Below are positions 621 to 39,479 of a DNA stretch of 40,297 nucleotides, one piece after another. This stretch comes from a virus. Lineage: Duplodnaviria > Caudoviricetes. The stretch is taken from the IMG/VR virus record IMGVR_UViG_3300021408_000173, positions 1 to 40,297 of that record. One strand, given 5' to 3'. Numbering within the stretch: the first letter of the stretch is position 1; the number at the start of each line of letters is the position of its first letter. Below the pieces are notes generated by a model that saw only the letters and a list, made by a program, of their open reading frames with translations, was not told the origin of the DNA and ran no database searches. The translations under genes and the position numbers were made by a program.

Positions 621-691
621 CGTCCGCCTCCCTCACGTGCCCGCAGATCGTGCACATACCCCTCTTGTCGTAGGTGTGGGCGTCGCCCACT

Positions 692-1120: not shown

Positions 1121-1121
1121 G

Positions 1122-1193: not shown

Positions 1194-1275
1194 TCAATCC
1201 TCCTGAGACGGCGAAGCCCGAGGGCCCACTCCGACCCCCGGGCGTCCCGCCCAACGTCCGATACGGTCGATCCCC

Positions 1276-2319: not shown

Positions 2320-2624
2320 TTGAAGTCCGCCAGGTAAACCCTGACGCTCAGGCCGAACTGGCGAGAGTCCGTATTGATTCCTTCCGGCACGCTCGAGAGC
2401 GTCGTCTGCGCGTAGTCCGCCGTCAGCGTGAGCATGTTGCTGACCGGGAACCGGAAGTCCATGCCGAACTGCGTGTACCCCTTGTTGTCCGACGCCAGGC
2501 CCGGCTGCTGCCCGCCGTGGATGCCCCAGCCGATCGACGGCATGCGGTCCGGGTTCTCCCTCGTGTCCCACGCGTGCGCGACCTGCGACGATAGTAACAC
2601 GAGCGCCACCAGTAAGTATTTCAT
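2316..2624 (-). CDS. Secreted small outer-membrane beta-strand protein
   Basis: Signal peptide ending AHA; amphipathic strands FGMDFRF, LTLTADY, FGLSVRVY. Confidence 0.65.
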   Translation of the reverse strand: MKYLLVALVLLSSQVAHAWDTRENPDRMPSIGWGIHGGQQPGLASDNKGYTQFGMDFRFPVSNMLTLTADYAQTTLSSVPEGINTDSRQFGLSVRVYLADFK

Positions 2625-2633
2625 AAGACCCCC

Positions 2634-3395
2634 TTAGAGCTCGAACGCCTTGAGCATGTTCCTCGGCCCACGGTCGTCGTCCTTCACGTGCTTCTTGAAA
2701 TCCAGACTTACCTTTCTACCGTCCGACTCGCCGGCCTCGCGCGCATCCGCGTTATTGTCGGTGTACCGTTGGCGGCGCGAGGTCAGCTCGTACTTCGCCT
2801 TGACAAACTCGGCAACCTGTTTGTCCTTGCGCACAACCAAAGCGGTCACTTTGGCAGCGTCTGCCTTCGACATCTCGTCCGACATGCGGTTCGCGCGGTA
2901 CCTCAAAGTGTCGACCACCCCTTCCACGTACTTAAACCTCCTGACAAGCGCCTGCTTGGGCGTCATCTCCGGGCTCGGGTTCGCCTTCGACCACCGCAGC
3001 CCCATCTGCATAAGCTCCAGCTTGAGAAGTTTGTAGACCTCGACGGCCAGCGTGACGTCGGTCTCGTAGCCCACGAACACGACCGCGCGCCGTTCGGTTC
3101 TATAGGGGTTGATCCGCGAAAAGTGTTTTGTGTTGAACAGCGCGTCGCACACCCAAGGAAGCTCGTACTCCCATCGAGGCGCCCCGGCCCGTTCCTTCAT
3201 CGACTCTTCCTTAATGTTACCGAAGCTGTCCCCCTCTTTTTCGGCCACGTCTGCCATGGAGAGGTTGTGCTTGTCCATCAGGTTCTTGGCCATGCGAAGG
3301 GCGTTCTCGACCTCGCCCTCGTGCGGGTTCTTGTCCCTGTCACCCAATGCCAAGCACTTCTTGATGGTGTCGATGATGCGATCGCGCTCGTTCAT
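2634..3395 (-). CDS. DUF2786-domain protein
   Basis: IKKCLALG..NPHEGE.ENAL..A..LM.KHNL N-terminal signature. Confidence 0.8.
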   Translation of the reverse strand: MNERDRIIDTIKKCLALGDRDKNPHEGEVENALRMAKNLMDKHNLSMADVAEKEGDSFGNIKEESMKERAGAPRWEYELPWVCDALFNTKHFSRINPYRTERRAVVFVGYETDVTLAVEVYKLLKLELMQMGLRWSKANPSPEMTPKQALVRRFKYVEGVVDTLRYRANRMSDEMSKADAAKVTALVVRKDKQVAEFVKAKYELTSRRQRYTDNNADAREAGESDGRKVSLDFKKHVKDDDRGPRNMLKAFEL

Positions 3396-3396
3396 G

Positions 3397-3684
3397 CTAT
3401 CTCGCCGCCTTGGCCAGCTTCGCGGCCGAGTAGTTCTTCATGACGTGGATCTTGGTGGGGTTGATGAGGAACGCCTGCTCGTCCAGCTTGTAGCCGCGAT
3501 CGCGCAAGTCGTTGGCAACCTGCTCGATCATGTCGGGGTCAGCCTTGCCAAAGGTTAAGAACACTTTCCTGTTGCCCGTGGTGGCCGCGTCCAGGATCGC
3601 GTTGTTCGTGTACGCCATCATCTGGTCGAGCTCCGAGGCCGATGCTACCGAAGACAACGCCAAGAGTAGAAGTAATGTTTTCAT
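3397..3684 (-). CDS. Secreted hypothetical protein
   Basis: MKTLLLLLALSSVASA signal peptide; AAGGAG RBS. Confidence 0.7.
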   Translation of the reverse strand: MKTLLLLLALSSVASASELDQMMAYTNNAILDAATTGNRKVFLTFGKADPDMIEQVANDLRDRGYKLDEQAFLINPTKIHVMKNYSAAKLAKAAR

Positions 3685-3685
3685 T

Positions 3686-4063
3686 TTAGTCTCCTTTATG
3701 GTGCTTTCGTTTGGGCTGTGTGCTCTCGTATTTGCCCTTCCTTAATTCCATCGACGGCTCCGTCCCGTCCCCCTCGTACCCGGTTTTGCTGAAGAACGAA
3801 TGCCGTATCCAGAACGCCATGAAGTCGCCGACGTACCGAACAGGGAACATAGCCACCTGCCAAACAGCCATAGCTCGTGCTTCCCAAGTCAACTCGCCCT
3901 TCTCGTTCGTCCCCGTGCAGGTGGGCTGTATCCGGTCGGTCGCCTTCCTATTTATGCGCGGTGCCTTGGGGTCCGGCTTGGAGAACTCGTAGTGGTTGGG
4001 GTTCACACCACACGAGCCATCGAAGCAATTTTCGTCTGACTGGTGATCGTGCTTGAGCGTCAT
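3686..4063 (-). CDS. Hypothetical protein
   Basis: 125-aa ORF tightly packed in the operon. Confidence 0.6.
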   Translation of the reverse strand: MTLKHDHQSDENCFDGSCGVNPNHYEFSKPDPKAPRINRKATDRIQPTCTGTNEKGELTWEARAMAVWQVAMFPVRYVGDFMAFWIRHSFFSKTGYEGDGTEPSMELRKGKYESTQPKRKHHKGD

Positions 4064-4064
4064 G

Positions 4065-4295
4065 TTAGGCCGCCTTCCGCGACGCTTCCGTGAACGTCAC
4101 GTAGATGTTCCAGTGCTCGATCGCTTGCACGACGTCCTTGCCAATCGCGCGATGACCATGCTCTTCGCAGACCGCTTCAACCGCTTCCTTCTTATCGTAG
4201 TCTAAGAGCGGCACGAAGTTCGGAACCAAGTGGCAATCTGGGCATCTTTTACAGTCGTCAAGTCCAAGCTTCTGAGTCGATTTCAAGTTTTCCAT
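4065..4295 (-). CDS. Small Zn-ribbon protein, first gene of the leftward operon
   Basis: CPDC...CEEH; AAGGAG RBS. Confidence 0.65.
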   Translation of the reverse strand: MENLKSTQKLGLDDCKRCPDCHLVPNFVPLLDYDKKEAVEAVCEEHGHRAIGKDVVQAIEHWNIYVTFTEASRKAA

Positions 4296-4314
4296 GTGAG
4301 GTCTCCTTTGGTCC

Positions 4315-4454
4315 TGCTTGATTTCCTTATACTTAATTATACGTCGGGTTACAACGAAAGTAAACGGTTTTTTGACTTGCTTGAATAATGTTGCTTGAAG
4401 TAAATTGGCTGATAAATCAGCTCGTTTTTAGCCTGCTTGGGCCAATTGCTTGAA
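4315..4454 (+). repeat. Direct repeats TTGCTTGAA x3 (core TGCTTG x5) plus a GCTGAT-AA-ATCAGC palindrome
   Basis: TTGCTTGAA at 4377, 4391, 4446; TGCTTG at 4315, 4434; palindrome 4408-4421. Confidence 0.7.
4336..4364 (-). promoter_or_regulatory. Sigma70-type early promoter
   Basis: TTTACT (4364-4359), 17-nt spacer, perfect TATAAT (4341-4336), upstream of the leftward operon. Confidence 0.8.
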
Positions 4455-4548
4455 ACTGGAGCTTTTATGTCGTGCGTGCTTGGGGCTCTTCACGTTACAT
4501 TTACACGTGTGCGAGAATCACCGTTTATTTCAGCGAGGCCCAGCGTAG

Positions 4549-5085
4549 ATGTCCAAGCCGACCAAAAAGGCCAAGACAAAACGCCACGCCGGCATGTTCG
4601 TGTCCCACGACCCGAGGAGTGGTACGGGGGGTGCGCGCCAGGGTGCTGGCCGCCCGCCGAACTGGTTCAAGCAGGCTTGCGACCAGGCCCTGCAGAAGTA
4701 CCAGCTGTTCGACCTCCTGGCCGATGGAGCCAGGGGCGAGAAGGTGGACTACATCGTGGGCGAGGGTGGCAAGCTCCGCAAGGTGCCCGCGAGGTACAGG
4801 GACCGGGTGGCCTCGATAACGGAGCTGGCGGACAGGGCGCACGGCAGGCCGACCCAGCACGTGGACGTGTCGAGCGACCAGGCGCTGATGGAGCTGCTCT
4901 CCCTCGTCACCCTGGCGGTGAAGCAGCGAGTGCCGGCGGCCTGCCCGCACTGCAAGCACAAGATGTCGTCGCTCCAGGAGCTGGCGCAGGACTTCATAAC
5001 GATCCAGGAGCGGCTGATGGACAAGGCCAAGGGCACGGTGAAAGGAGCCTTACCGGATGCGCGAGATGACAGCAAGGACGACTGA
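4549..5085 (+). CDS. Terminase small subunit
   Basis: Directly upstream of TerL; GGARQGAGRP and ELADRAHGRPTQ motifs typical of TerS. Confidence 0.8.
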   Translation: MSKPTKKAKTKRHAGMFVSHDPRSGTGGARQGAGRPPNWFKQACDQALQKYQLFDLLADGARGEKVDYIVGEGGKLRKVPARYRDRVASITELADRAHGRPTQHVDVSSDQALMELLSLVTLAVKQRVPAACPHCKHKMSSLQELAQDFITIQERLMDKAKGTVKGALPDARDDSKDD

Positions 5086-6622
5086 CGACATCCTGTTGCC
5101 GGACCCGGCAGCGCTCCCCCTCAACTCCGCAGAGTTCTTCGCCCGCCTAGCCCAGAATTTGACAGCCGAACCCATAGAGCTCCGCGACTTCGTCACCCAG
5201 TCCTGGCCGATCATCGAGCCCTCCAACTCCCTCATAGAGTCCTGGCACATCGACTGCATCTGCGAGCACCTCGAGCTCGTCATCAGCGGCGACATAAGGA
5301 AGCTGCTCATCAACCTGCCGCCCAGAGAGGCCAAGTCAAACATCGTCACGGTCCAATTTCCCTCCTGGGCATGGACCCAGTTCCCCGCCCTGAGGTTCAT
5401 CACCTGCTCCTACGCGGCATCCCTATCCATCAAGCACGCCGTCATGCGCCGCAACATCATCAACTCCAGGTGGTACCAGAAGAACTGGGGGGACACGGTG
5501 CGGCTCGCCGAGGACCAGAACCAGAAGCAGGAGTACGAGAACACGGCGAGGGGCCACATGATAGCCACCTCGGTCGGCGGCACCATCACCGGCAAGGGCT
5601 GCGACATAGAGATAGAGGACGACATGGTCAACCCCCTAGAGGCTGAGAGCGAGGCGCACCGCCAGCACGCGATCGACATGCACCAGACGGTCCTGCCAAC
5701 GCGCCTCGACAACCCGAAGACCGGGTCGCGCATCATCGTCGAGCAGCGTACGCACGCCAAGGACGTATCGGGCCATGTGCTGGAGAACGAGGACGGGTGG
5801 GTGCACCTCAAGCTGCCCATGATAGCCGAGAGGAAGACCACAGTCGTGTTCCCCAAGAGCGGCCGCGAGGTAGTGCGCGAGGTGGGGGACATACTCAACC
5901 CCGAGCGCAGAGGGCCGAAGGAAGTGGCGGATTTGAAGAAGACGATGGGCAGCAGGGCGTTCGTCGCGCAGGCACAGCAGGACCCCACCACCGAGATAGG
6001 CAACATCATCAAGCGGCACTGGTGGACCAAGGGCTTTTATAAGGTATTGCCTTCTGGTTTCAATTTAGTCATAACCTCCTGGGACATGAACTTCCAAGAG
6101 ACGAAGTCGGGCAGCTTCGTGTGCGGCCACGCGTTCGGCAGGCGCGGCGCGGACTTCTACATATTCCCCATAGAGGTGAGAGAACGAATGGACTTCGCCG
6201 AGACCGTGCCCGCCGTGCTCGGCCTCAAGGGCCAAGTGCCATCTGCCCGCGCCCACCTCGTGGAGCGCAAGGCGAACGGCGCCGCGATCATCTCGCACCT
6301 GCACAAGGTCATACCCGGCCTGATACCCGTTGAGCCCAAGGGCTCCAAGGTCGCCCGCGCGCAGGCGTGCGCTCCCTATATAGAGGCCGGCAACGTGCAC
6401 CTCCCCGACCCGAGCATCTGCCCGTGGACGCTGGACTACATCGAGGAGTGCGCCAAGTTCCGCGGCGACGACAACGAGATCAACGACCGCGTCGACGTGC
6501 TCAGTCAGGCGCTCAACTGGTTCGCGCAGATCAGGGTGGTGGACCAGCAGGAGGAGGAGGTCGTGGGCACCTTCATAGACATCAACGGCGAGGGCGCGTC
6601 CCTGGGAGGCTTCAGTGATTGA
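5057..6622 (+). CDS. Terminase large subunit
   Basis: INLPPREAKS (Walker A), ITGKGCDIEIEDD (Walker B region), SWD, VE.KANG, NDRVD nuclease motifs. Confidence 0.95.
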   Translation: MREMTARTTDDILLPDPAALPLNSAEFFARLAQNLTAEPIELRDFVTQSWPIIEPSNSLIESWHIDCICEHLELVISGDIRKLLINLPPREAKSNIVTVQFPSWAWTQFPALRFITCSYAASLSIKHAVMRRNIINSRWYQKNWGDTVRLAEDQNQKQEYENTARGHMIATSVGGTITGKGCDIEIEDDMVNPLEAESEAHRQHAIDMHQTVLPTRLDNPKTGSRIIVEQRTHAKDVSGHVLENEDGWVHLKLPMIAERKTTVVFPKSGREVVREVGDILNPERRGPKEVADLKKTMGSRAFVAQAQQDPTTEIGNIIKRHWWTKGFYKVLPSGFNLVITSWDMNFQETKSGSFVCGHAFGRRGADFYIFPIEVRERMDFAETVPAVLGLKGQVPSARAHLVERKANGAAIISHLHKVIPGLIPVEPKGSKVARAQACAPYIEAGNVHLPDPSICPWTLDYIEECAKFRGDDNEINDRVDVLSQALNWFAQIRVVDQQEEEVVGTFIDINGEGASLGGFSD

Positions 6623-15959: not shown

Positions 15960-16021
15960 TTCAATGGGAAGTAGGAACTCAGAACCCGATGAACGGGATA
16001 GAAGAAGGGGGACGAAGAGCC

Positions 16022-17080
16022 ATGAGCCAATCGTCATTCGAAGAGCAGGTAAAGGGCCTAGGGGTAACCGTCAAGTACGGCGCCAGAATAGCGACGCCGG
16101 AGCAGCCGAGGAGGAATCTCTCGCAGATCGGCTCCGAAAAGTGGCTGACCCACTGGGCGAAGCATTCTCACCAGAACTACCATTTAGTCTCGAAGTCGGC
16201 TGGCGTTAGGTTCCTCGCGGGCGCGTGCACGGGGCTGCCGGCCTTCGTGGTCGGCGCGGGCGCCAGCCTGGACCAGGACGTCGAGGCGCTGAAGGACGCC
16301 AAGGACCGCGCCGTCGTCATCGCGGTCGACGCGTCGTACAGGGCGCTAGTCGCCAACGGGATCACGCCGGACGTGGTCATCACGTTCGACTGCAAGCCCG
16401 AGCAGCAGCTCCTGTGGGAGAGCGCGCCGCCCCACGACACGACGATGCTCTTTAACACATGCTCCAGCCCGGAAGCGATCAAGTCGTGGCGCGGGCCCAT
16501 CGCCTTCTACAACCACTTCCACACCTCCGACGAGTTCTCCAAGACCATCCTGCCGGCCGTCTACCCGCACATCGGGCAGATACCGTCGTGCGGCACAGTG
16601 GGCAACATGGCCGTGTTCCTGGCGAAGCTGCTGGGGTGCACGCAGACGATGCTCGTCGGGATGGACCTCTGCTTCGGGTCGGCCGAGAAGCGCAGCGAGA
16701 AGGGCTGGCTGTACCGCGCGCGGGACTACAAGCTGGTCGACGCAGAGGAGATGGCGAGCGGCAAGAAGTGGGTGCGCACCGAGGTCAAGGTCCTCTACGA
16801 CAACGACGACCGCGTCAAGAGGTCCTATAAAGTCTCCTGGAAGGGCAAGGATTTTCAGGTGGACCCAGAGCTGGACTTCTACCACGAGACACTGCTCAGG
16901 TTCATCAAGCACTACAAAATAGAGGCCATCAACTGCTCCGAGAACGGCCGGCTGCAGGCCGACATGCCGAGCATGTCCGTGAGCCAGTGCCTGGAGACGT
17001 TCTGCAAGTCGACGATCCAGGCCGGACGACACGTGCTGCCTTACCTGGGCACGATTCTCAAAGACCCGAGGTCAAAGTGA
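16022..17080 (+). CDS. Maf / DUF115 (MAF_flag10, MptE-like) family protein
   Basis: PAFVVGAGASL, IAVDASY..L...GITPDVVITFD, GTVGN.A..LA..LG...LVGMDLCF, INCSE. Confidence 0.85.
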   Translation: MSQSSFEEQVKGLGVTVKYGARIATPEQPRRNLSQIGSEKWLTHWAKHSHQNYHLVSKSAGVRFLAGACTGLPAFVVGAGASLDQDVEALKDAKDRAVVIAVDASYRALVANGITPDVVITFDCKPEQQLLWESAPPHDTTMLFNTCSSPEAIKSWRGPIAFYNHFHTSDEFSKTILPAVYPHIGQIPSCGTVGNMAVFLAKLLGCTQTMLVGMDLCFGSAEKRSEKGWLYRARDYKLVDAEEMASGKKWVRTEVKVLYDNDDRVKRSYKVSWKGKDFQVDPELDFYHETLLRFIKHYKIEAINCSENGRLQADMPSMSVSQCLETFCKSTIQAGRHVLPYLGTILKDPRSK

Positions 17081-17739
17081 AAGAGTGGCCGCCATACGTT
17101 AAGCCCTTTAGATCCAATCCTCCTGACGGCTCGGTGGCCATCGCCCTGCCGATCAAGGACGACCTGCGCTTCTTCAAGTTCACGTACCACTCGGTGCTGG
17201 CCTTTTCGGACGTGCCCTTCGTACTGACCGTGGTGGACAACATGAGCGGGTTCAAGACCGTGCAGTACCTCGAGTCGGTCCGGCGCAACCACCAGGTCAA
17301 CCTGCTGCAGTACCAGCAGGAGCACAACGTCGCGGCGGAGTGGAACCTGGCGCTGCGCTTCATGTTCTCGTACTCGACGGTGCGGTACGGGGTGTGCCTG
17401 ACGCCGACGGTGGTGCTGGAGCCCTACTGGCTGTCGCAGCTGACGGAGACGATGAGGACGCTGGACGCCGGAATCATTTCTCCTGAGACCCGCAAGGACG
17501 ACCCGCAGCTGCTATCATCCTGCTTCGTGTTCAAGCGCGAGGTGTTCGAGGACGTGGGCGGGTTCGACGAGTCGCGGTGGCAGGGCGACTTCGCCAAGGA
17601 CTTCGCGAGGCGCGCGCAGGAGAAGGGGCACAAGGTCGTCAAGAACCACACGACCTACGTGCACAAGTTTGAGAACAACGGATTTGATAAAGTCCTGCGG
17701 CGGGCAGAACCCGCCCCAGAGAGGGAGGCAGTGCTATGA
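17077..17739 (+). CDS. Glycosyltransferase family 2-like protein
   Basis: IALP, VVDNMS, WNLAL, CFVFKREVFEDVGGFDE, DF..RA...G, YVH; GTG start overlapping the upstream stop. Confidence 0.8.
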   Translation: MKEWPPYVKPFRSNPPDGSVAIALPIKDDLRFFKFTYHSVLAFSDVPFVLTVVDNMSGFKTVQYLESVRRNHQVNLLQYQQEHNVAAEWNLALRFMFSYSTVRYGVCLTPTVVLEPYWLSQLTETMRTLDAGIISPETRKDDPQLLSSCFVFKREVFEDVGGFDESRWQGDFAKDFARRAQEKGHKVVKNHTTYVHKFENNGFDKVLRRAEPAPEREAVL

Positions 17740-29592: not shown

Positions 29593-29847
29593 CTACACGC
29601 CGGCTCTGAGCAAATAAGCGGCCAGTAAGAACAAACCGAGGAACATGGCCAACAATCCAACCAGGACATGCACCCAGTAGTGAGCCATGAACAAATGGCC
29701 GGTTTCCCCTATGTCCCCGCACTTGTCGCAGATCATGGGAGGTCTGATCTTGGACACCTTTGGAAGGACCGACCGACGGCAGTGCACGCAGATACGGGAC
29801 TCGTCGTGGATCATGTGCGCACAGTGCGGGCAAGGTTTCATCGCCAT
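29593..29847 (-). CDS. Zn-ribbon membrane protein
   Basis: CPHC..CVHC..CDKC then a C-terminal TM helix. Confidence 0.7.
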   Translation of the reverse strand: MAMKPCPHCAHMIHDESRICVHCRRSVLPKVSKIRPPMICDKCGDIGETGHLFMAHYWVHVLVGLLAMFLGLFLLAAYLLRAGV

Positions 29848-30350
29848 CAGAGTGCCTTCCCCCCGTGCCGATAAGGCCGCCGGGAATTAAACATAAGCTT
29901 CGCAATAATTGCTCCTGGTAGGTTCCAGCCCTTCCTCTTGTACCAACTCATCAAACGAATAACAACGTCAGCGCCCTCGGCCTCCGCGCCGGAGAACTCT
30001 GGGATCTTGTCGTCCTTGGGGTTGCCGTGCCTAAGCCACTCGAGTATCTCGCTGGCCTCGCTGTGGACCAGCGCAACGCACTCGCCGTCCGTCGGCATAG
30101 GGTCGTGCCACCCGTGGCTCTCGTTGATGTCGTACGCCACCTGCATCAGGAGATTAAATGTCTGGACGAAATCGCGCTCTAGGCCGCCACCAATACTGAT
30201 TTTCTGGCGCGCGTCCACCTGTCCTTTACCTTGTCCCACGGTTCCTTCTCCGCCCAGCTTGTCTCCGCCACCGACACCTCCGTGGTTATCGGTACCGGGA
30301 AGTTCTCCCTGTCCTCCATCCCCTCCACCAACGCTTCCTTTGCTTTCCAT
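29847..30350 (-). CDS. MazG-like nucleotide pyrophosphatase
   Basis: N..HGW, ALVHSEASEILE..R, E.ADVVIR, K..FN..RPYRHGGK; start at ATG 30350 (AGGAGG) or GTG 30218. Confidence 0.85.
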   Translation of the reverse strand: MESKGSVGGGDGGQGELPGTDNHGGVGGGDKLGGEGTVGQGKGQVDARQKISIGGGLERDFVQTFNLLMQVAYDINESHGWHDPMPTDGECVALVHSEASEILEWLRHGNPKDDKIPEFSGAEAEGADVVIRLMSWYKRKGWNLPGAIIAKLMFNSRRPYRHGGKAL

Positions 30351-31993
30351 ACTTGATCCCTCCTGACCTCGACTCCCATTTCGTCGTGCACCGTAAGGAA
30401 CGGGTGCGCGTCCAGACCCGACAGATTCTTGAACACCCTGTTGATGCCTCGCTTCATGACGAGGGCGGCCGGCCCCTGGCAGAGGACGTTGGCCGCCTTG
30501 TAGCACAGCTCGCGCGGCACGTGGTAGCGCCGTCCGAACTGGTCCTGCACGTAGCCGTCTCTGAGCAGGTCGCCCTGTGACTGCAGCATGAAGTCCCGCG
30601 CCTCGGGTATCTCCATGAAGTATTTGTTCTTGCGGTGCTGCGCGTCTCGCAGTGAAAGCCCCGCGCGCTGCGCGTACCTCTTAGTGCCCATTCCAAAGAT
30701 CAAGCTGAAGTTAAGTTCTTTAGATTGGAACCTTAATTTTTTTATGGCTTTTTCGTCGAGTCCGTCGAAGCAATTTTTTCCAAAAATATATTTACCCGCG
30801 GCCATGTGGAAGTCCACTCCTCTACGGACTTCGGCAAGCAGTCGATCGGCTCCAGCGGCGCAGGCAAATAAAATAAACTCAATCTGTTTGTAATCCGAAA
30901 AGAGGAAGACATAGCCTGGTCTAGGCGTGACTGCTCGTCGGACAAGACCTGGGTCTCTAAGCATCTCGACATTGCCGCCGCGACCTCCTCCCGGTATGTT
31001 TTGAAAATTTGGGTCAGAGCTGCTGAATCGTCCTGTTTTGATTCCATGTTCATCGCTCCCAAAGGGCCAGAAATTAGGATGAATGATTTCATCCACTTGA
31101 TGTTCTAAGAACGCCTCGAAGTACGTGCCTGTGATTTTATTCAACGACCGTAACTCGTTCAGTGTCTTGACAAATTTGTGATCCTTCAGAGCCTGCATGT
31201 ACTCGGTACCGGTGGCCATCAGGCCGGTCTTGGTCTTCTGCCCCGTGTCAAGACCCAGGCTGAACAGCGCCGTCTCCAACTGCTGAGGTGAGTTCGGGTT
31301 GAACTTGCAGCCCACTTGATCGTACAAACTCTCCTGAAGCTCCGCGATCCTGATTTTATTCCCGACAATCGCCTTCTTGCAGTAGTCCTTGTCTATGTGG
31401 ATTCCCCAGCGCTCGATCTCCACCGTGTTCGGGATGACGGCGCGCTCGATCTCGTAGACCCGCTTTTGGCCGCCGCGCATGACCGGCTCCATTTTCCATA
31501 TCATCTTGAGCGTGATGTCGAGGTCCTTCTCGAGGTACTTCCTCATGATCCCGCGCGGGACGTCGGAGTAGTTGGCGTCCTTCTTGCCACGGCGCCGGAG
31601 GCCGGAGAGGATGCGCTTGACCTCCTTCTCCTCGTCGGCGGGGATCCCGAGGTGGCGCGCCGCGCAGTCCTTGAGCTTCAGGTTGGGCTCGTACTCGTTG
31701 TTCATGTAGGTCATCAGCATGCCGTCGTGGACGGTGCCGTCGATGGGGAGCGCGCCCTCCTTCCCCATCTTGAGGTCGAACTTCACGTTCCACCCCATCT
31801 TCTCGACCTTCGGGTCGGCGAGGACCTTCTCCATCAACGCCCACTCGCGCGTCTTGGGCTCGGCCAGGAGAACGTGTCCTGCCTCGTCTTCTATGCCACC
31901 GAGGAAGATCTCGGCCCCCTTCCAGGGGTCTAGCCCGGTGGTCTCGAAGTCGAAGGCTACTCTCTTACCCGCAATGATTGGTAACTTTGACAC
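30179..31993 (-). CDS. Family A DNA polymerase (3'-5' exonuclease + polymerase)
   Basis: DFETTG, WNVKFD, KTGRFSSSDPNFQNIP, DYKQIE, R...K..NF, TVHDE; GTG start with AAGGA RBS. Confidence 0.95.
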   Translation of the reverse strand: MSKLPIIAGKRVAFDFETTGLDPWKGAEIFLGGIEDEAGHVLLAEPKTREWALMEKVLADPKVEKMGWNVKFDLKMGKEGALPIDGTVHDGMLMTYMNNEYEPNLKLKDCAARHLGIPADEEKEVKRILSGLRRRGKKDANYSDVPRGIMRKYLEKDLDITLKMIWKMEPVMRGGQKRVYEIERAVIPNTVEIERWGIHIDKDYCKKAIVGNKIRIAELQESLYDQVGCKFNPNSPQQLETALFSLGLDTGQKTKTGLMATGTEYMQALKDHKFVKTLNELRSLNKITGTYFEAFLEHQVDEIIHPNFWPFGSDEHGIKTGRFSSSDPNFQNIPGGGRGGNVEMLRDPGLVRRAVTPRPGYVFLFSDYKQIEFILFACAAGADRLLAEVRRGVDFHMAAGKYIFGKNCFDGLDEKAIKKLRFQSKELNFSLIFGMGTKRYAQRAGLSLRDAQHRKNKYFMEIPEARDFMLQSQGDLLRDGYVQDQFGRRYHVPRELCYKAANVLCQGPAALVMKRGINRVFKNLSGLDAHPFLTVHDEMGVEVRRDQVWKAKEALVEGMEDRENFPVPITTEVSVAETSWAEKEPWDKVKDRWTRARKSVLVAA

Positions 31994-32120
31994 TATGGTA
32001 TTCCTTGTAGACCATCCCAAACCCCTTGCACGTCACGCACGTGTCGAAGTCTCGCCAGCCGGATCCGGAGCAGTCGTTACATTTTACACAGTCAACCTCA
32101 GGCCCTTCACTCGGTTCCAT
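31965..32120 (-). CDS. DnaJ-type Zn-finger mini-protein (51 aa)
   Basis: Hand-translated: CNDCSGSG...CVTCKGFG (two CxxCxGxG). Confidence 0.65.
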   Translation of the reverse strand: MEPSEGPEVDCVKCNDCSGSGWRDFDTCVTCKGFGMVYKEYHSVKVTNHCG

Positions 32121-32535
32121 ACAGTTCCCCCCGTTGCTTGATCGCCGCGTCGTACACCTTCGTCGCGCACCCGTCTGGGTCCTTGCGGACCTGACATTCC
32201 CAGAAGCGCATGACCGTGAAGCCCATCGTCTTCAGGCTCCGCAGCACGCGCCTATCCCGCTTCTTGTTATTCGTCACCTTGTCACGCCAGAACCTAACGT
32301 TGGACTTCGGCTCGGCGTAGTGCCTAGGGCAGCCGTGCCAGTAGTCCCCGAACACGTCAACTATCAACTTCAAATCTGGAAAGTAAAAGTCAGGCTTACC
32401 CGGTAACTCCGCCCACTGCGTGTAGATCATTCCCCTCTTCTTCAGCGCGGCCGCCAACAGTCTCTCGGGCATGGTATTCTTTCCGCGGATCGCCGACATG
32501 ATCCGGCTTCTAGTCGCCTTGTCTACAGTGTCCAC
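32107..32535 (-). CDS. vsr: Very short patch repair (T:G mismatch) endonuclease
   Basis: MD...RSRIMSAIRGKNT.PE, LPGKPD, YWHGC, FW..K...N..RD, WEC. Confidence 0.92.
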   Translation of the reverse strand: MDTVDKATRSRIMSAIRGKNTMPERLLAAALKKRGMIYTQWAELPGKPDFYFPDLKLIVDVFGDYWHGCPRHYAEPKSNVRFWRDKVTNNKKRDRRVLRSLKTMGFTVMRFWECQVRKDPDGCATKVYDAAIKQRGELYGTE

Positions 32536-33098
32536 TCGTTCACGCGCGTGTAGTCCAGCCGCAGCGTGCCCCTCGAGTTGAGAACCTTGTGCCGCTGGAG
32601 AATGAATTTATTATCCTCCTGGCCGCCGTTAAAGATTGGTGCGCTGGTCAACCGTATGCCTGCCTTCATTATTAGGGGTTCAACGACTAGCACCAGCCTG
32701 TCCACGAAGTTCCAGCGAAGCATGAAGTCGTACGTGGTTGCCCCACCGCACACCACGATACGCTTGCCCCTGCGGTAGTCTAGGAACAGGCGGACGTCGC
32801 TCTGGTGCGGCTCTACAGTCCAAGCCACGTCGTCGGCTGCCCTCGACGTCAGCTCGAGACTCTTCTGCCTGGTCAGCAGCGCCACGGGCTTGCGGACCCT
32901 GGGCATCTCATTAAGCGCGTTCCGCCCGCCCAGCACGATGTCCGCCTGCCGGACCTCGCGCCAAAACTCTTCCTTGTCCTCGGCGCTGGTCCACCCCCCG
33001 TACTTCTCCTGGTTGGGCGCCCCGCCGTCGCTGCGCGCGATGCTCCCGTTAAGGGTGCAGCAGGCGACCATGATGACGGTCGCGCGCTCGCCTTTTAC
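32523..33098 (-). CDS. Dihydrofolate reductase / RibD-C-like protein
   Basis: VIMVACCTLNGSI, WTSAEDKEEF, VLGGRN, VCGGATTY, VDRLVLVVEP; start ambiguous (ATG 33071 or frameshift fusion). Confidence 0.8.
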   Translation of the reverse strand, partial: VKGERATVIMVACCTLNGSIARSDGGAPNQEKYGGWTSAEDKEEFWREVRQADIVLGGRNALNEMPRVRKPVALLTRQKSLELTSRAADDVAWTVEPHQSDVRLFLDYRRGKRIVVCGGATTYDFMLRWNFVDRLVLVVEPLIMKAGIRLTSAPIFNGGQEDNKFILQRHKVLNSRGTLRLDYTRVNEWTL

Positions 33099-33937
33099 TT
33101 GACGAGCTTTGGGCCGCGTATCGGTGGAAACGGGCTGTAGAACGCCATCATCTTTTGGAAGATCGCGTTCGCCGCCCACTGGTCTCCTTCGAGTGCCTGG
33201 ACCGTGACGTCTTTCGTTAAACCCAGATTTGCCGGGTACATCGCCTTTTCTCCGCATAACTCCTCCCTCGTTATCATCTCTTCTGCCGCCGTCCACTGGT
33301 CCTCGTACAGGTGGGCGTTGGACACCTGGTACGACAGGTTGCCGGGCACGACGTCGAGGCCCGCCGCTATCAGCTCCTGGATGAGGCGCGCGCCGAGTAT
33401 GTCGTGTGGCAGGCCGAAGTACAGGTCGGCCGACCGCTGGATGACGGACATGTGGAGGTGCCCGTCGATTATGTGGACGTGCCAGAGCATCACGCACGGC
33501 GCGTTGGGGCCCGGCTTCAGCAGGTCGTCGTTCGGGTTCCACGACAGGAGGACCGCCTGCCGGCTGCTCGGGTCGGCGTCGAGCTTGTCGATGACGGCCA
33601 TGAGCTGGTCGAGGCGGCCGAACCTGTGGCGCCACCGGTACCCGGTCGCGGACTCGACGAGGCCGTCCTTGTTGGCGAACGGGTCCCAGTTCTTGAAGCC
33701 CAGGTCCTGCATGAACTTCACGTCCGACTTCCCGCCCATGAACCAGACCACCTCGGCCGCCGTCCACATCGGGTTGATGTTCCGGAGGTTGAGGATGGGG
33801 AATGAGCCGAGGCGGAAGAAGGCGCCGTCCACCGCGCGGACCATCTTGCCCGTCCGCCGGTTGTGCTCGGGCTTCGCCTGCATGACGCGCTTCAGGAGAA
33901 ATGAATAATAGGTGTCGAACTCAGTCTTGTTTGGCAT
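33095..33937 (-). CDS. Thymidylate-synthase-fold enzyme, predicted dCMP (hydroxy)methylase
   Basis: RTG, E..WF, DQL, SRQ, PC148V, QRSADLYFGLPHD179, HLY; Asp replaces the ThyA Asn. Confidence 0.85.
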   Translation of the reverse strand: MPNKTEFDTYYSFLLKRVMQAKPEHNRRTGKMVRAVDGAFFRLGSFPILNLRNINPMWTAAEVVWFMGGKSDVKFMQDLGFKNWDPFANKDGLVESATGYRWRHRFGRLDQLMAVIDKLDADPSSRQAVLLSWNPNDDLLKPGPNAPCVMLWHVHIIDGHLHMSVIQRSADLYFGLPHDILGARLIQELIAAGLDVVPGNLSYQVSNAHLYEDQWTAAEEMITREELCGEKAMYPANLGLTKDVTVQALEGDQWAANAIFQKMMAFYSPFPPIRGPKLVK

Positions 33938-34346
33938 CTGGCTTCTCCTTGGCCGGGTCGTATGACTTGATGGCTTTGGCTAGCCACTCGCCCTCCGCTA
34001 ACTCCACGTGGCCGTCCTCGTCGTCCTCATAGAGCGCAGCAGCCTCCCCGAAGGTGAACGCGGCGTAGTTGATCGCGTCCGCCATTGACTCGAGGATCGC
34101 CGCCACCTGTTCCTTCGACGGCTTCTCGGGTCTGCCCTGCTTGTCGACGGACCATGATCCGACCTGCGACAGTGCGCGCTTTACCTTCATGTCAACCATC
34201 TGCAGCGCGCCGCGAATGCCGTTCACTTCCCAGTAGTCGCGGAGGTCTATCCCGCCCTTGTTATAGTCCTGATCCCGCTGACCACCCGCTAGCTTAAGGG
34301 CGGTCCCCAATGCTTCCAGGTAAAATTCCTTCTGTCTTTTTTCCAT
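33921..34346 (-). CDS. Nucleotide-modification-associated alpha-helical protein (DUF1599/DUF6378-like, MazG-related)
   Basis: R..DY, K.KR, ES..D.INYAAF; adjacent to the TS-like gene. Confidence 0.6.
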   Translation of the reverse strand: MEKRQKEFYLEALGTALKLAGGQRDQDYNKGGIDLRDYWEVNGIRGALQMVDMKVKRALSQVGSWSVDKQGRPEKPSKEQVAAILESMADAINYAAFTFGEAAALYEDDEDGHVELAEGEWLAKAIKSYDPAKEKPDAKQD

Positions 34347-34452
34347 GAGTTTCCCTCCAGTTTTGCCACATGAAGTACGGTATCAAGGGGATGAACGCCA
34401 TGACCGTCAGAACGAAAACAACCCCTTGAAACACGAAGTCGCGTTTTCTCAT
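34294..34452 (-). CDS. Small membrane protein (52 aa)
   Basis: AAGGAGG RBS; ATGA overlap with primase stop; TM helix. Confidence 0.5.
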   Translation of the reverse strand: MRKRDFVFQGVVFVLTVMAFIPLIPYFMWQNWRETHGKKTEGILPGSIGDRP

Positions 34453-36971
34453 CGCCCAGCCTCCTTGACGAACTTGTACATCATCCGACCATGCTTGTGG
34501 TACTTGATCCTTTTCCACCCGGCCTTGTTCAGCGTCTCCTCCGAGTCGAACAGCCGGGTGCCTAGCTGCCGTTCGTTGGACCACGGGCACTTCGCGCCGA
34601 TCATCTTGGCGAGGAGCCTGAAGTCCGTGAGGAGTTCCCGCGTCGTGCACTTCAACTCTATTTTGCTGCCCACCTTCTCAAACTTGAGGGACGAGCCGAG
34701 CAGTGAGCCGTGCCGGTCGTGTAGCGTGCTGATGAAGTAGAGCACGTCGTCGGTCCCCTCGTCCTGCTGCTGCTTCGCCTTCGTCTGGCTCTCCAGCCAA
34801 AAGTTGACCAGGTCGTGCGGCCGGCGGTAGAGCTTCAGGGGCATGTACCCCCAGAAGGCGTCGAGGATGATGCACATGAGGGCGAGGTACTCGTTGAACC
34901 GCTCTTTGCCGTGCGCGTGGAACTCCCGCATGATCCTGTGAACCTCTCCTGACCGGACCCTCGGCAGTATGTACTTGGACACCAGGAACAGGAGAGAGGA
35001 CATGATCTCGTTGCGGTGCTGCTTCAGCTGGCCGAACACCTTGGCCTCGTGAAAGTTGGCGCGGCCATACGCTTGGATGTCTAGACCGATCTCCATTGTC
35101 CTGTCGATCAGCTCGTGCCTGACGAAGGGCTCGATGCCGTTGGTAAGCACCAGGCAGTTCGTGTGCTCCATGATGACGCCGCGGTCGACCGAGACCTGGC
35201 GCTTCGCCTTCATCCCGCCCGTCGCTGCGATCAAAAGGAAATCAATAAGGGGGGCCGTCATGTTATGTGTCTCGATGTTGTCTAGGAGGAGGACGGGGTA
35301 GCGGCTTGCCATCTCGTACGTGGCCGCGACTGTCGAAGCCGAGTGGCTGAGAAGCTCCTCGCCATAGACCAGCAGACTGACGAGCTTCGACGCCGTGGAC
35401 TTCCCATACGCGGTCTTAGCGAGCAGCCTCACTATCGGCTTCGGCCGTATGTAGTCCCGGAAGAACCCACCCACTAGCCAACAGACCATGAGGTACCGGT
35501 CCTCGTCGGACATGGCCAGGTTCTGCATAAATAAATTCTCCAGATGCTGCAGCCCAGCCGCAGGCTTCGATGTTGGGAGCACGGGCACAGCCATGGCAGG
35601 GGTGGGGAGGTCCAGCAGTATCTTCTCCTTGTTGATCGCGTTCTTTATGTGGATCGCCGGGCCGTCGCCTATCTTCAGGAGCTTGTCCGTGCCGGCGTGG
35701 ACGTAGAGGTGCCCGTTGTCGTACATGGTCCACACGCCCGTCTTCGAGAACTCGCTCTGGTCGAAGGCGTTGTTCTTGACGTGCTGCATGATGAACTTCC
35801 CGGTGGTGGTGGCCTGGTTGATGAGGGGCGAGACCTTCGACAGGTAGGAGGTGAACGGGCCGAGCTCGGCGCTGACCTTCACGGCCTGGTACCCCTCGCG
35901 GACGTAGAAGAGCTCGCTGCCGACGCTCTTGAAGAACGCGCCCTTGTGCACGAGGTGGTCCCACACGGCGCCGGCCCTCTCGACGAGCGCCTCCTCCGAC
36001 TTCGAGACCTCCATCGCCACGAGGCCGGCGCCCGACCCGTTCAAGGGCACGGTCTTGTTCAGGAGGTCTGATCTCGACGCCGAGCCGATGAGGTCGCGCA
36101 GCTTCTCGGTGGTCCCGCCGTACCGCATGAACCAGTCGGTCAGGTCTTCCTTCTCTTCTTTGAGTGGTAGGGGCACGATCGCGCAAGTCTTGGCATATTT
36201 GGCGATGAGCTTTTGTCTAGCCTGAGCCCCCTTAAGTCCAGCTGCATCATTGTCGGGGATGACATAGACATCCTTGCCCTTAAACTGGCTAGACCATTCC
36301 GGTTTCCAAGTGAGAGCTCCTCCGGCCGGAGTGACCGCAGAGATACCATATTGGCAGGCCAGTATAGCATCCAGCTCTCCCTCCACCACAAACACCTTGT
36401 TGCCCCTAACACTTTCAATCGGATACAGACGTGCCGACCCGTATCCCTCCCGCCAGGATACCATCTTCGGACCGCCATCTTTGAACAGATCGTAGCGTCT
36501 AATGTTGACACACCAGCCCTCCTTGTTGAATATCGGGATGGTCAGGCGCTTGCCATCGTAGCCCAGCCTGAACCTGCGGGCGGTGTCCCGTGTTATACCC
36601 CTGATCTTCTCCAGCCTTGACAGCACAAGGTGGTTGGCGAGCAGCGCCTCGGCCGGCTTGCGGTACGCCTCAGGAGGAACCAACGGCTCTACAAATCTAC
36701 TCCAGAGCTGCCGCACCGCCTTGTTGAACGGGACCTTCTTGAAGTCCACCCAGAACGAAATCGGTGAGGTGCACTTGTACCCACAGCCGTGGCAGTACGC
36801 GCCACCTGTGTCCAAGAACACCTTCATAGAGGGATGGCTGTCCTCGCCCTTACCATGCTTCTCCGGGAACGGGCACGGCAGGTTGTCCTTGCCATTCCAG
36901 CCCTCGAAGAGTTCCTGGTAGAACTCCTTGACGTCCATCGCCTCGGTTATCTTCTTGACTCTAGAGTCCAT
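34449..36971 (-). CDS. Primase-helicase (CHC2 Zn finger, TOPRIM, P-loop domain)
   Basis: CPF..H...CHGC; VEGELD; PDND; AYGKST Walker A; LLLDN Walker B. Confidence 0.9.
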   Translation of the reverse strand: MDSRVKKITEAMDVKEFYQELFEGWNGKDNLPCPFPEKHGKGEDSHPSMKVFLDTGGAYCHGCGYKCTSPISFWVDFKKVPFNKAVRQLWSRFVEPLVPPEAYRKPAEALLANHLVLSRLEKIRGITRDTARRFRLGYDGKRLTIPIFNKEGWCVNIRRYDLFKDGGPKMVSWREGYGSARLYPIESVRGNKVFVVEGELDAILACQYGISAVTPAGGALTWKPEWSSQFKGKDVYVIPDNDAAGLKGAQARQKLIAKYAKTCAIVPLPLKEEKEDLTDWFMRYGGTTEKLRDLIGSASRSDLLNKTVPLNGSGAGLVAMEVSKSEEALVERAGAVWDHLVHKGAFFKSVGSELFYVREGYQAVKVSAELGPFTSYLSKVSPLINQATTTGKFIMQHVKNNAFDQSEFSKTGVWTMYDNGHLYVHAGTDKLLKIGDGPAIHIKNAINKEKILLDLPTPAMAVPVLPTSKPAAGLQHLENLFMQNLAMSDEDRYLMVCWLVGGFFRDYIRPKPIVRLLAKTAYGKSTASKLVSLLVYGEELLSHSASTVAATYEMASRYPVLLLDNIETHNMTAPLIDFLLIAATGGMKAKRQVSVDRGVIMEHTNCLVLTNGIEPFVRHELIDRTMEIGLDIQAYGRANFHEAKVFGQLKQHRNEIMSSLLFLVSKYILPRVRSGEVHRIMREFHAHGKERFNEYLALMCIILDAFWGYMPLKLYRRPHDLVNFWLESQTKAKQQQDEGTDDVLYFISTLHDRHGSLLGSSLKFEKVGSKIELKCTTRELLTDFRLLAKMIGAKCPWSNERQLGTRLFDSEETLNKAGWKRIKYHKHGRMMYKFVKEAGR

Positions 36972-37042: not shown

Positions 37043-38074
37043 TTAGCCCAACCGTTTCTGCACGGCCTTGGCCAACAGCTTCAGCACGTCCTTGATACCG
37101 TCACCCTTCTTCATTTCAACCTTCAGGGCCTCGGCAAGAGGACTGATCTCGCTCATCTCCAGCTTCGCCTTCGCGTCATGCGCCAGCGCACAGAACGAGC
37201 GGAGGACGGCGCGGGGGTTCTTCAACTTCGTCGCGTCGAAGCCTAGCTCTTTGAGGGCAGCCTTGACTTTGGATGCGGGTAGGTCAGCAACGTCGTCGGG
37301 TTCTGGGACAACGAACTCGGTGTCGTCATCGTCCTCTTCCTCATCTTCGTCGTCTTCCTTGTCTTCCTTTTCATCCTTCTCTTCAGCTTCCTCTTCGTCC
37401 TCTTCCTCGTCGTCTTCCTCTTCATCTTCTTCTTTGACGAGCTCTAGCTTGGAGATGTCGACGCGGTACTTGTCGCCTTCTTCGGTCTTCACGCGCGCCT
37501 TGCCGTCGTCCATCAACTCGATGACTTCTCCAGTCTTGTCGCCCCACTTAACTTGGGAGCCTTCCTCGATCTCGGAGTCAGATTCTTTGTCTTCCTTTTC
37601 TTCCTTGTCGTCCTTCTCGTCGTCCGACTCTTCGCCCTCTTCGCTCTCGCCGATCAGGCGATTGACGTACACGTTAAGGAAGTCGTTCTTCGTTTTGACC
37701 TGACCCTCGAACGTCTTGCCGATCATCTGGTCGGCCACTTCGCCGTCGGTGATGTCGGAGATGTCCTCAGGCAGGGAGATGTTCATGCGGCTCAGCTTCT
37801 TCTTGAACCACCCCATGTTCTCGGACGTCTCGAGGTTGTCGTTGATCTCGATCTCGGTACCGATGAACTCCTCGGCCCCGCCCACGCACTTAAGCTGGGT
37901 CTTGAACGTCGGCTTCCCTTTGTCGGACATCTTGAAGCCGGTCACCCGGCCGTCTTTGCCCTTCTTAAGAACCTTGAACTGGTAGGTCCCGTCGGGCAAC
38001 TCGCCGCCGCCGGCAGAGTCCGCATCCTCCCACATCTTCTGAAGCATTGCTTTTTCTTTCGCGTTTACAGCCAT
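37043..38074 (-). CDS. ssDNA-binding-like protein (DUF669-like) with acidic tracts
   Basis: LPDGTY.F.V start; follows the Sak4-like ATPase; long D/E tracts; GAGGAGG RBS. Confidence 0.7.
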   Translation of the reverse strand: MAVNAKEKAMLQKMWEDADSAGGGELPDGTYQFKVLKKGKDGRVTGFKMSDKGKPTFKTQLKCVGGAEEFIGTEIEINDNLETSENMGWFKKKLSRMNISLPEDISDITDGEVADQMIGKTFEGQVKTKNDFLNVYVNRLIGESEEGEESDDEKDDKEEKEDKESDSEIEEGSQVKWGDKTGEVIELMDDGKARVKTEEGDKYRVDISKLELVKEEDEEEDDEEEDEEEAEEKDEKEDKEDDEDEEEDDDDTEFVVPEPDDVADLPASKVKAALKELGFDATKLKNPRAVLRSFCALAHDAKAKLEMSEISPLAEALKVEMKKGDGIKDVLKLLAKAVQKRLG

Positions 38075-38155
38075 TCGTTGCCTCCTCGTGTTTTTTAGAT
38101 AAAGACAGCCCAGGCCTGTGCACAGGATAATCCCCTGCACGGTGAGGTCCGCCCT

Positions 38156-38944
38156 TTACTTTCGTTTGAGAATTATTTTTTTACTACTGGATTTTTTGTT
38201 ACTGCTAGCTTTGCCGAGCAGGAAGCGCTCGACGAGTTGGAAGCCGCCTTCCTCTGGAATGACAAGAGACTCCGGCAGGCCTCCCTTTGTTCGGTCCTTG
38301 GCTTCGACTGTGCTCGTGGGCTGGAACTGCATGCGCCGTTCTAACTCTCCTGAGTCGGCAGCCTCGTCGCCGAACCCAAGGTAGGCCATGATGTCGGCCA
38401 TGGGGAACAGCACCTTGTACGCCTGGGAGTGCATGGCTGGGATTATCTTCGAGGTCCTGATCGCGCGGCCCTTCTCTTCGGTCGACTTCGAGTGGTCCAG
38501 GAAGAATAAACCATAAGGCAGCTTCGTCAGTTTATTGATCTCCAGATTGAACTCGGTCGTGACCAGGTCGTACGCCTTGCCGTAGGGTTCGTCGGACTGG
38601 TGCTCGATGCCGCGCTTATCAAGGATATACTTCCTACACATGAGGTACAGCGGGTCGATCGTGTCGATGGCGATCGCCGTGTAGCGCTTTGGTTTGTTGA
38701 GGATTAGATACTTAACAATTTTCTTGAAGTGCAGCCAGTCGTTGATGGTCTGCTTGAAGGCCTTGATGAACCGCAGACCTGGGTCCGTGGACAAGAAGAG
38801 GACGTTCTCGCACTGCGCCACGAACGACGACTTGCCTATGCCCGGAGGCCCGTAGACAATCCATATCATCTCCTGCATCACGGCGCCTTCCATCGTCTGG
38901 TCCTTGGGCAGCTCGAAATCCGATGTCTCTGTCGTCTTACTCAT
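38156..38944 (-). CDS. AAA_24 / Sak4-like recombination ATPase
   Basis: YGPPGIGKSS, IAIDTID, H, AKDR. Confidence 0.85.
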   Translation of the reverse strand: MSKTTETSDFELPKDQTMEGAVMQEMIWIVYGPPGIGKSSFVAQCENVLFLSTDPGLRFIKAFKQTINDWLHFKKIVKYLILNKPKRYTAIAIDTIDPLYLMCRKYILDKRGIEHQSDEPYGKAYDLVTTEFNLEINKLTKLPYGLFFLDHSKSTEEKGRAIRTSKIIPAMHSQAYKVLFPMADIMAYLGFGDEAADSGELERRMQFQPTSTVEAKDRTKGGLPESLVIPEEGGFQLVERFLLGKASSNKKSSSKKIILKRK

Positions 38945-39479
38945 GTTCTTCCCCCTCTGACAATTTTATGCACTCCACGCCGCAGGTCTCCAGCACCTCT
39001 ATCGCGGTCCCGCCCTCCGGCCACAACTCCTCGTACACGACCGTGTCGATCCCCGCGTTCACTATCTTCCGCGCGCACGGGACGCACGGGGACAGCAGGG
39101 TGTAGAGCGTGGCGCCCTCGACGGCCGTCCCGTGCCTGGCCGCCTGCACGATCGCGTTCTCCTCGGCGTGGCAGCACAGGCACCTCGCGTAGTCATCGCC
39201 GGCCGCCGCGCCCTCGGCGCACCGCGGGCACCCACCTTCGTCGCAGTTCTTCCATCCCCGCGGGGTCCCGTTGTACCCGACGGACAGGACGCGGCCGTCC
39301 TTCGCTAGGACCGCGCCGACCGCCCTCTTCACGCACGCGGAGCGGAGCGCCACCGTCCCGGCGAGCTGCATCAGCCAGGAACCTACGGATGGACGCGACC
39401 GCGCGAAGCTTTGCTTGGGCATCTCGCAGCCCGGCTTGCCGCACCACGGCGTCCTCGACAGCGGGTTGCAGACGCACAT
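38937..39479 (-). CDS. dCMP deaminase (ComEB-like)
   Basis: RSAC..R.VGAV, GYNG.P, HAEENA, PCVPC; start at ATG 39479 after GGAGG. Confidence 0.92.
   Translation of the reverse strand: MCVCNPLSRTPWCGKPGCEMPKQSFARSRPSVGSWLMQLAGTVALRSACVKRAVGAVLAKDGRVLSVGYNGTPRGWKNCDEGGCPRCAEGAAAGDDYARCLCCHAEENAIVQAARHGTAVEGATLYTLLSPCVPCARKIVNAGIDTVVYEELWPEGGTAIEVLETCGVECIKLSEGEEHE

Follow-up and report, generated by a model that had tools for sequence, protein, structure and literature searches.

The tailed phage (Duplodnaviria; Caudoviricetes) of IMG/VR record IMGVR_UViG_3300021408_000173 is represented by 40,297 nucleotides, and this whole stretch is referred to here as the window. Its minus-strand replication arm ends in a block of genes for nucleotide handling, DNA synthesis and T:G mismatch repair, among them a homologue of thymidylate synthase (TS) that has an aspartate at the position selecting the pyrimidine base. 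Our analysis suggests that this enzyme probably methylates deoxycytidine monophosphate (dCMP) and that the phage builds 5-methylcytosine (5mC) into its DNA at the nucleotide level. The genes and codons concerned are the following.

33921..34346, minus strand: helical protein with weak DUF1599 resemblance; relative of the C-terminal domain in the Xp12 pyrophosphohydrolase
33095..33937, minus strand: TS-fold gene, predicted dCMP C5-methylase, 280 amino acids (Pfam, alignment, AlphaFold model)
33644..33646, minus strand: Thr98 codon of the TS gene, replacing Tyr94 of ThyA, T4 gp42, Xp12 and PaMx74
33401..33403, minus strand: GAC codon of Asp179, the cytosine-selecting position (Asp in 44/44 homologues)
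32523..33071, minus strand: dihydrofolate reductase (DHFR) homologue, 182 amino acids, with a W-x4-D-K motif in common with the Xp12, PaMx74 and RDJL1 genes
32107..32535, minus strand: Vsr-family T:G mismatch endonuclease, 142 amino acids (TIGR00632, 104 bits against a cut-off of 97.85)
30179..31993, minus strand: family A DNA polymerase (PolA) with 3′-5′ exonuclease (E 6.5e-65; alternative TTG start at 32020)
29847..30218, minus strand: MazG-like nucleotide pyrophosphatase, 123 amino acids from GTG 30218 (PHROG pyrophosphatase, E 2.4e-23)
38937..39479, minus strand: dCMP deaminase, PF00383 (E 2e-21; HAE and PCxxC zinc motifs intact; possible start at 39422)

Apart from the deaminase, these are the genes named in the original prediction, and the profile searches bear out PolA, the MazG-like gene and Vsr. 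Taken alone, the DHFR-like gene gave weak matches (RibD_C, E 5e-5; PHROG DHFR, E 3e-4); a 10-sequence profile made from 7 members of this lineage plus the Xp12, PaMx74 and RDJL1 genes matched T. maritima DHFR (1cz3) from end to end with an E of 4e-21, which supports the assignment. The DUF1599 label held less well: Pfam DUF1599 (PF07659) gave no match to the 33921-34346 product at E<=0.1, and what links there are come from its first ESM Atlas match (0.90), in a cluster of which 10% of members carry DUF1599, and from a weak profile match to the C-terminal domain of the Xp12 pyrophosphohydrolase (probability 41%, E 2.8e-4). The genes of the block share a strand, their junctions overlap or measure 24 bp, and one terminator-like site was found on that strand (shuffled sequences gave about 10 on both strands), an arrangement from which co-transcription, also claimed at the outset, may be expected. 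The deaminase lies 5.0 kb upstream of TS on the same strand, outside the region originally considered, and adds both a thymine-making branch and a competing explanation.

Residues and fold of the TS homologue

Reading of the open reading frame (ORF) and alignment to E. coli ThyA (from NC_000913.3) and T4 gp42 reproduced the residues on which the original prediction was built, namely Cys148, Val149 and Asp179 (GAC, 33403-33401), in the motifs P147-C148-V149 and QRSADLYFGLPHD179I. Relative to E. coli ThyA, C148 corresponds to C146, V149 to H147, D171 to D169 and D179 to N177, the last also aligning with T4 Asp179, while Asn145 stands for Leu143, Trp84 for Trp80 and Thr98 for Tyr94, and the C-terminal tail is long and ThyA-like. 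The product matches Pfam Thymidylat_synt (E 9e-42) and scores under all 8 NCBIfam thymidylate synthase cut-offs; its AlphaFold model has a pLDDT of 95.7, with ThyA structures as top Foldseek matches (TM ~0.76). In all, the canonical ThyA set of Asn177, His147, Leu143, Tyr94 and a score above the NCBIfam cut-off is absent from the window enzyme.

Asp177, Asn143 and Asp169 (E. coli numbering) are present in every one of 44 close homologues with 45-92% identity to the window TS, and the retention of Asp179 over this range shows that it is not a sequencing error. His153 and His178 are likewise invariant in the close homologues. In more distant representatives (n=149), Asp177 was found in 131, which have Asn143 in 105 cases and Asp/Glu143 in 1. 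Natural fusions of Asp177/Asn143 TS homologues were also observed, in P0065 to a dCMP deaminase and in P0132 to a PRA-PH pyrophosphohydrolase.

Signatures of the reaction and phylogeny

Asp at position 177 selects dCMP, and changing Asn to Asp turns ThyA towards this substrate (PMC8670742, PMC13326640). Hydroxymethylases are recognised by a short C-terminus and by an acidic residue three positions ahead of the catalytic Cys, and the D145N variant of T4 gp42 gave no product (PMC6400193). In 5-hydroxy-C synthases the mark is Asn169 (PMC13326640). The window TS fits neither pattern, having Asn145, Thr98 and a long tail in place of the Asp/Glu, Ser-x-Tyr and short C-terminus of the T4 type, and Asp171 (position 169) in place of Asn. 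The combination of Asp177, Asn143, Asp169 and a full tail is the same in the window, Xp12 and PaMx74, which makes dCMP methylation the fitting reading. In E. coli, 5-methyldeoxycytidine (5mdC) was formed by the Xp12 enzyme and by 5 of 7 metavirome enzymes with Asp177 (bioRxiv 10.1101/2024.12.05.627091), and His147 is lost in enzymes from modified contigs (PMC8670742), as it is in the window TS.

In a 30-row tree built from the window, 5 loci, 13 of the 44 homologues and 11 cultured references, ThyA and the Xp12 enzyme included, the window fell in a supported clade of 16 rows (96/92), beside two deeper rows bearing Tyr or Trp at the Tyr94 position. On this tree the window clade is a separate lineage, and a sister relation to the Xp12 clade is not supported.

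Conservation of the block in related loci

Related loci were counted with near-identical contigs taken once, the window included, and L011 left out as a hydroxymethylase type (Asp143). DHFR follows TS in 7 of the 9 loci covering that position, a Vsr gene is found downstream of TS in 6 of 9, the dCMP deaminase is present in all 6 covered loci, and a MazG-like gene follows PolA in 4 of 5 (window, L007, L008, L024). The slot before TS always holds a nucleotide-handling candidate, be it DUF1599-like (window, L015, L016), PF18909 (L007, L008, L014) or thymidylate-kinase-like (L010, L017); the kinase-like gene of these last two, which are deeper relatives, fits a nucleotide bound for DNA.

In L011 (9018-11219), an unrelated phage, PRA-PH, DUF1599-like, Asp143/Asp177 TS and deaminase genes are consecutive, and a gene with a histone-deacetylase domain comes next. 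This is probably a hydroxymethyl-type module.

Vsr and T:G repair

The Vsr profile matches E. coli Vsr (1cw0) with an E of 3e-34, the PD and WHxC motifs align, and Asp64 stands where the GCFW motif has Cys. No C5 DNA methyltransferase was found in G001, G002, G003 or the window, which stops 4480 bp short of its source contig, so no source of 5mC other than TS is visible. As in the original prediction, we infer that Vsr would repair the products of 5mC deamination. Tetranucleotide counts gave no clear footprint of Vsr repair, with an observed/expected ratio of 0.93 for CTAG in the window. Among the best 80 of 495 viral Vsr loci, a C5-methyltransferase motif (by regular expression within the flank) was nearby in 44, this TS with DHFR in 1 (G002) and a deaminase in 5. 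In G009, Vsr and a deaminase occur together and ThyA, ThyX and C5 methyltransferase were not found.

Directly before its 5mC block, Xp12 carries a gene annotated as hypothetical (QNN97216; L001:8735-9217) that matches the glycosylase domain of human MBD4 with an E of 5e-14. MBD4-like glycosylase also acts on T:G, and the Xp12 protein is a likely counterpart of Vsr in T:G repair. MBD4-like genes were found in 13 phage records.

Relation to known systems

A module of Asp177 TS and 5mC-selective deaminase has been described and tested (bioRxiv 10.1101/2024.12.05.627091, PMC8670742); the preprint proposes that the deaminase makes dTTP from 5-methyl-dCTP (5mdCTP), and finds 5mC selectivity of deaminases to be polyphyletic and unreadable from sequence. 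The closest cultured parallel is the Xp12/PaMx74 module (MT664984, QNN97215-QNN97212). It shares Asp177, Asn143, Asp169, Trp80, Phe83 and the long tail, and the Xp12 block has the same set of helical pyrophosphohydrolase, TS, dCMP deaminase, DHFR and PolA, no recognisable deoxynucleoside monophosphate (dNMP) kinase, and a genome in which C-rich palindromes are not avoided. The two differ in that the window TS has 34% identity to these enzymes and falls in a separate clade, with Thr for Tyr at 94, Val, Leu or Ile for Pro at 147, Gln for a hydrophobic residue at 165 and His for Tyr at 176. Vsr takes the place of the MBD4-like glycosylase, the window deaminase lies 5 kb upstream, and the 43-45 kb genome is unrelated.

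MetaGPA contigs (mSCD-B5 type) also combine an Asp177 TS with a PF00383 deaminase, pyrophosphohydrolase and PolA, positions 177 and 147 both being changed, whereas the window deaminase at 5.0 kb lies beyond their +/-3 kb rule. T4 gp42 shares Cys148, Asp179 (the numbers agree by chance) and a Ser two residues before the Tyr position, and differs in Asp145, Tyr96, the absence of a C-terminal tail and in needing no DHFR. The 5-hydroxy-dCMP synthases of RB69, DLP3 and RL38J1 share the TS fold and Asp177, but have Asn169 (RB69 and DLP3 also Glu143) where the window has Asp169 and Asn143. E. coli Vsr and the Vsr encoded beside C5 methyltransferases in Burkholderia phages KL3 and AH2 belong to the same family, above the cut-off, with the same proposed 5mC-to-T repair; the window differs by having no C5 methyltransferase, by a target that would be genome-wide 5mC, and by Asp64 for the GCFW Cys.

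The main texts of bioRxiv 10.1101/2024.12.05.627091 and PMC8670742 do not mention Vsr or DHFR. In the literature searched (subscription reviews lay outside it), no paper was found that links a dCMP methylase to Vsr or to an MBD4-like enzyme, nor one describing a ThyX-type dCMP methylase.

Proposed pathway

From the genes, residues and co-occurrences seen directly, we infer a pathway that we consider probable, in which nucleotide-level 5mC substitution joins dCMP methylation by TS, folate recycling by DHFR, incorporation of 5mdCTP by PolA, supply of thymine by deamination and repair of T:G by Vsr. Cys148 would attack dCMP held by Asp179, with methylenetetrahydrofolate supplying both carbon and hydride, in a pocket that Asn145 and the long C-terminal tail would close, where that of T4 is opened to water by Asp. 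DHFR would then re-reduce the dihydrofolate. A host kinase, or a phage kinase not recognised here, would raise the product to 5mdCTP for incorporation by PolA, and the deaminase would convert part of the 5-methyl pool to thymidine nucleotide, so that no dUMP-type synthase would be needed. In DNA, Vsr would nick the T:G that arises from 5mC deamination and is invisible to uracil glycosylase, and PolA would fill the patch. The weakest step is the removal of dCTP or dUTP, which the helical pyrophosphatase-like proteins may carry out; dCTP depletion is the least supported part of the original prediction. The purpose of such a substitution would be escape from type II restriction, and Xp12 DNA resisted 196 of 218 type II enzymes (PMC7653180).

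As for the original prediction as a whole, a dCMP methylase with DHFR-recycled folate and 5mC DNA on the precedent of Xp12 is the reading that the sequence supports best, and it gains the Asn143 and tail signatures; the deaminase and the loss of Tyr94 had been missed.

Palindrome avoidance

As a proxy at the level of DNA, 6-bp palindromes were compared with synonymous-codon shuffles. C-rich palindromes, those with two or three C per strand, number 484 in the window against 465 expected (ratio 1.04, z 1.1) and show no avoidance; palindromes with one C are avoided (ratio 0.59, z -4.8). Ratios for C-rich palindromes were 0.94 in Xp12, 1.01 in G002 and 1.11 in G003, against 0.28 in PA73, 0.41 in phiKMV and 0.15 in T7. 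BcepGomr (ratio 0.69) carries genes for a deazaguanine pathway and was therefore not used as an unmodified control. Neither TGATCA nor GAATTC occurs in the called genes of the window (about 10 and 8 expected) or in Xp12, and TGATCA is also depleted in G002.

Evidence against the proposed pathway

Several observations weigh against nucleotide-level 5mC substitution. In the enzyme itself, Tyr94 is replaced by Thr in the window and 43 of the 44 close homologues, while Tyr is present in 124 of the 131 distant Asp177 proteins and in all reference enzymes; P0044/L017 is a natural homologue with Tyr. Tyr94 of ThyA is described as the base that takes off the C5 hydrogen, and the Y96F variant of T4 gp42 gave no product (PMC6400193). 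With His147 gone as well, neither residue of the usual network for proton abstraction is left. Gln165 is retained as in ThyA, where Xp12, PaMx74 and T4 have a hydrophobic residue; the tree leaves the window clade in an open polytomy with ThyA and unjoined to the Xp12 clade; and 2 of the 7 predicted metavirome enzymes gave no 5mdC (bioRxiv 10.1101/2024.12.05.627091). In the gene neighbourhoods, DHFR is missing from 2 of 9 loci and Vsr from 3 of 9, so neither is obligatory, and 30 of the best 80 Vsr loci have no candidate 5mC source in their flanks. The palindrome test is affected in three ways: G001 avoids C-rich palindromes mildly (0.85, z -4.0), the controls PA73, phiKMV and T7 are all lytic phages of gammaproteobacteria, and three Vsr-bearing uncultured viral genomes without a ThyA-type gene have ratios of 1.04, 1.18 and 1.22. 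Since these TS-less genomes give results like those of the window, the absence of avoidance agrees with modified C but is not diagnostic of it.

The original prediction had seen no dNMP kinase in the window, and searches with a P-loop regular expression and kinase profiles (PF21448, PF02223, PF11753, T7 gp1.7) agree, finding none in the window (to its end 4480 bp short of the source contig), G001 or G002. On its face this also speaks against 5mdCTP; since the same searches are blank for Xp12, we did not count it as evidence against. Among the window, G001, G002, G003 and Xp12, PF02223 matched in G003 only.

The last point on this side is L046, whose primase and PolA have 41% and 39% identity to those of the window, but which carries ThyX, Vsr and deaminase in the TS slot, between primase and PolA and after MazG-like and DUF1599-like ORFs (both labels by eye). 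No ThyA or C5 methyltransferase was found in this record, which is 80% complete. The ThyX of L046:4235-6420 (G006) and of L047:4960-6400 (G007) each adjoin Vsr and a dCMP deaminase and read SLHY and STIW at the SxRY motif, without its Arg, which is kept in 77 of 80 viral ThyX loci; L140 and L165 look like mis-hits of the regular expression and were not counted. The Arg-less enzymes are possibly flavin-dependent dCMP methylases, or may serve the plain dTMP pathway, and the case is either a counter-example to the Vsr rule or a lead.

Alternative explanations

We think it unlikely that 5-methyl-dCMP is instead turned into dTMP at once, leaving little or no 5mC in DNA and Vsr as a passenger or for the clean-up of leakage. 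Such a bypass would account for a deaminase in every covered locus, for the lack of a kinase in the window and two circular relatives, for the absence of ThyX and of a second TS from the window, and for L046, where ThyX with deaminase and Vsr occupies the same slot as if it just supplied thymidylate. However, Xp12 is fully 5mC-substituted and likewise without a recognisable kinase, L010 and L017 carry a kinase-like gene, and the L046 ThyX is itself short of a conserved Arg. In addition, the TS-deaminase pairing is enriched in modified-C contigs (104/149 versus 17/277) and the deaminase that was characterised used the triphosphate as substrate (bioRxiv 10.1101/2024.12.05.627091).

A decidedly unlikely alternative is that the product of TS is 5-hydroxymethyl-dCMP or some other C5-modified nucleotide, which the two glycosyltransferase-like genes at 15989-17739 may decorate afterwards. 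Ser96 at the place of T4 Ser94, the altered site (Thr for Tyr94, invariant His153 and His178) and the presence of Maf/MptE-like and GT2-like genes in the window and G002 would suit it. Yet Xp12 too has Ser at the T4 Ser94 place, there is no Asp/Glu143, without which T4 activity is killed (D145N; PMC6400193), the DHFR linkage and long tail favour hydride transfer, and G001 has the same TS but lacks the glycosyltransferase-like genes, which in the window sit on the opposite strand amid tail genes. These genes were rejected as part of the module. The Maf/MptE-like gene (15989-17080, plus strand; PF01973, E 1e-31, with a weak PseD flagellin-modification match) and the GT2-like gene (16987-17739, plus strand) sit between the major tail and tape-measure genes, and possibly serve glycosylation of a virion protein.

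Very improbable is a dUMP-using thymidylate synthase of the ordinary dTMP pathway, or an enzyme weakened by loss of Tyr94, since, although deaminase, TS and DHFR are also the textbook dTMP set and Gln165, the tail and the top structural matches are ThyA-like, Asp177 is found in 44/44 homologues and switches ThyA to dCMP (PMC8670742, PMC13326640), His147 is lost as in the modified-contig enzymes (PMC8670742), and the remaining catalytic residues are invariant over 45-92% identity, which argues against decay.

Genome setting

The window covers most of a tailed-phage genome, with the following further features.

4549 to 29494, plus strand: terminase, portal, head, tail and lysis genes
40297 to 29593, minus strand: replication arm
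34449..36971, minus strand: primase-helicase-type replication gene, directly upstream of the TS block
38156..38944, minus strand: Sak4-like annealing ATPase, with the sole P-loop motif found by the regular-expression scan of the window
31965..32120, minus strand: small Cys-rich ORF, 51 amino acids, not found in related loci and probably incidental

A 365-residue protein at 37043-38140 (minus strand) has a long acidic tract and is kept in relatives without a family match; by position only, we guess that it resembles a single-stranded DNA-binding protein. The nearest cultured-phage proteins are distant (TS 38% identity, DNA polymerase <29%). In G001 the replication arm is 49-71% identical to that of the window and no head or tail gene is shared at E 1e-6, while G002 matches both; the module therefore travels with the replication arm.

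The source record is classed as a provirus, 88% complete; no integrase was found among the window ORFs scanned, and the window ends neither overlap nor join in frame. Locus L012 is identical to the window over 17,200 bases and its contig of 44,777 bp places 4480 bp to the left of position 1 outside the window. This part was trimmed as non-viral; as the complete relative G002 measures 44.7 kb, it may be phage DNA. The window sequence is present in two runs of one soil metagenome sample, and no variants were seen between these low-depth runs over window positions 1-6000. A pattern scan of 185,579 species genomes found no relative, and no host was assigned.

Implications

Nucleotide-level 5mC substitution is established for Xp12 and metavirome contigs, and the pathway is already in print; what is new here is the separate clade, Thr in place of Tyr94 and the association with Vsr. 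The enzymes tested in bioRxiv 10.1101/2024.12.05.627091 may include a member of this clade. As a tentative extension, on balance rather doubtful, the dCMP methylase of the clade would have arisen independently and would take off the C5 proton without Tyr94 or His147, and 5mC phages would repeatedly recruit context-free T:G repair, Vsr here and an MBD4-like enzyme in Xp12; in its boldest form, Vsr with a deaminase would mark hidden 5mC makers, the ThyX of L046 and L047 included.

If the proposed methylation is true, the window encodes a natural TS-family enzyme working without Tyr94, which would help in studying how the C5 proton is abstracted. It would also show how an all-5mC genome avoids drift to T, for which Vsr must act outside a fixed methylase motif, and the phage Vsr could then become a reagent for T:G detection.

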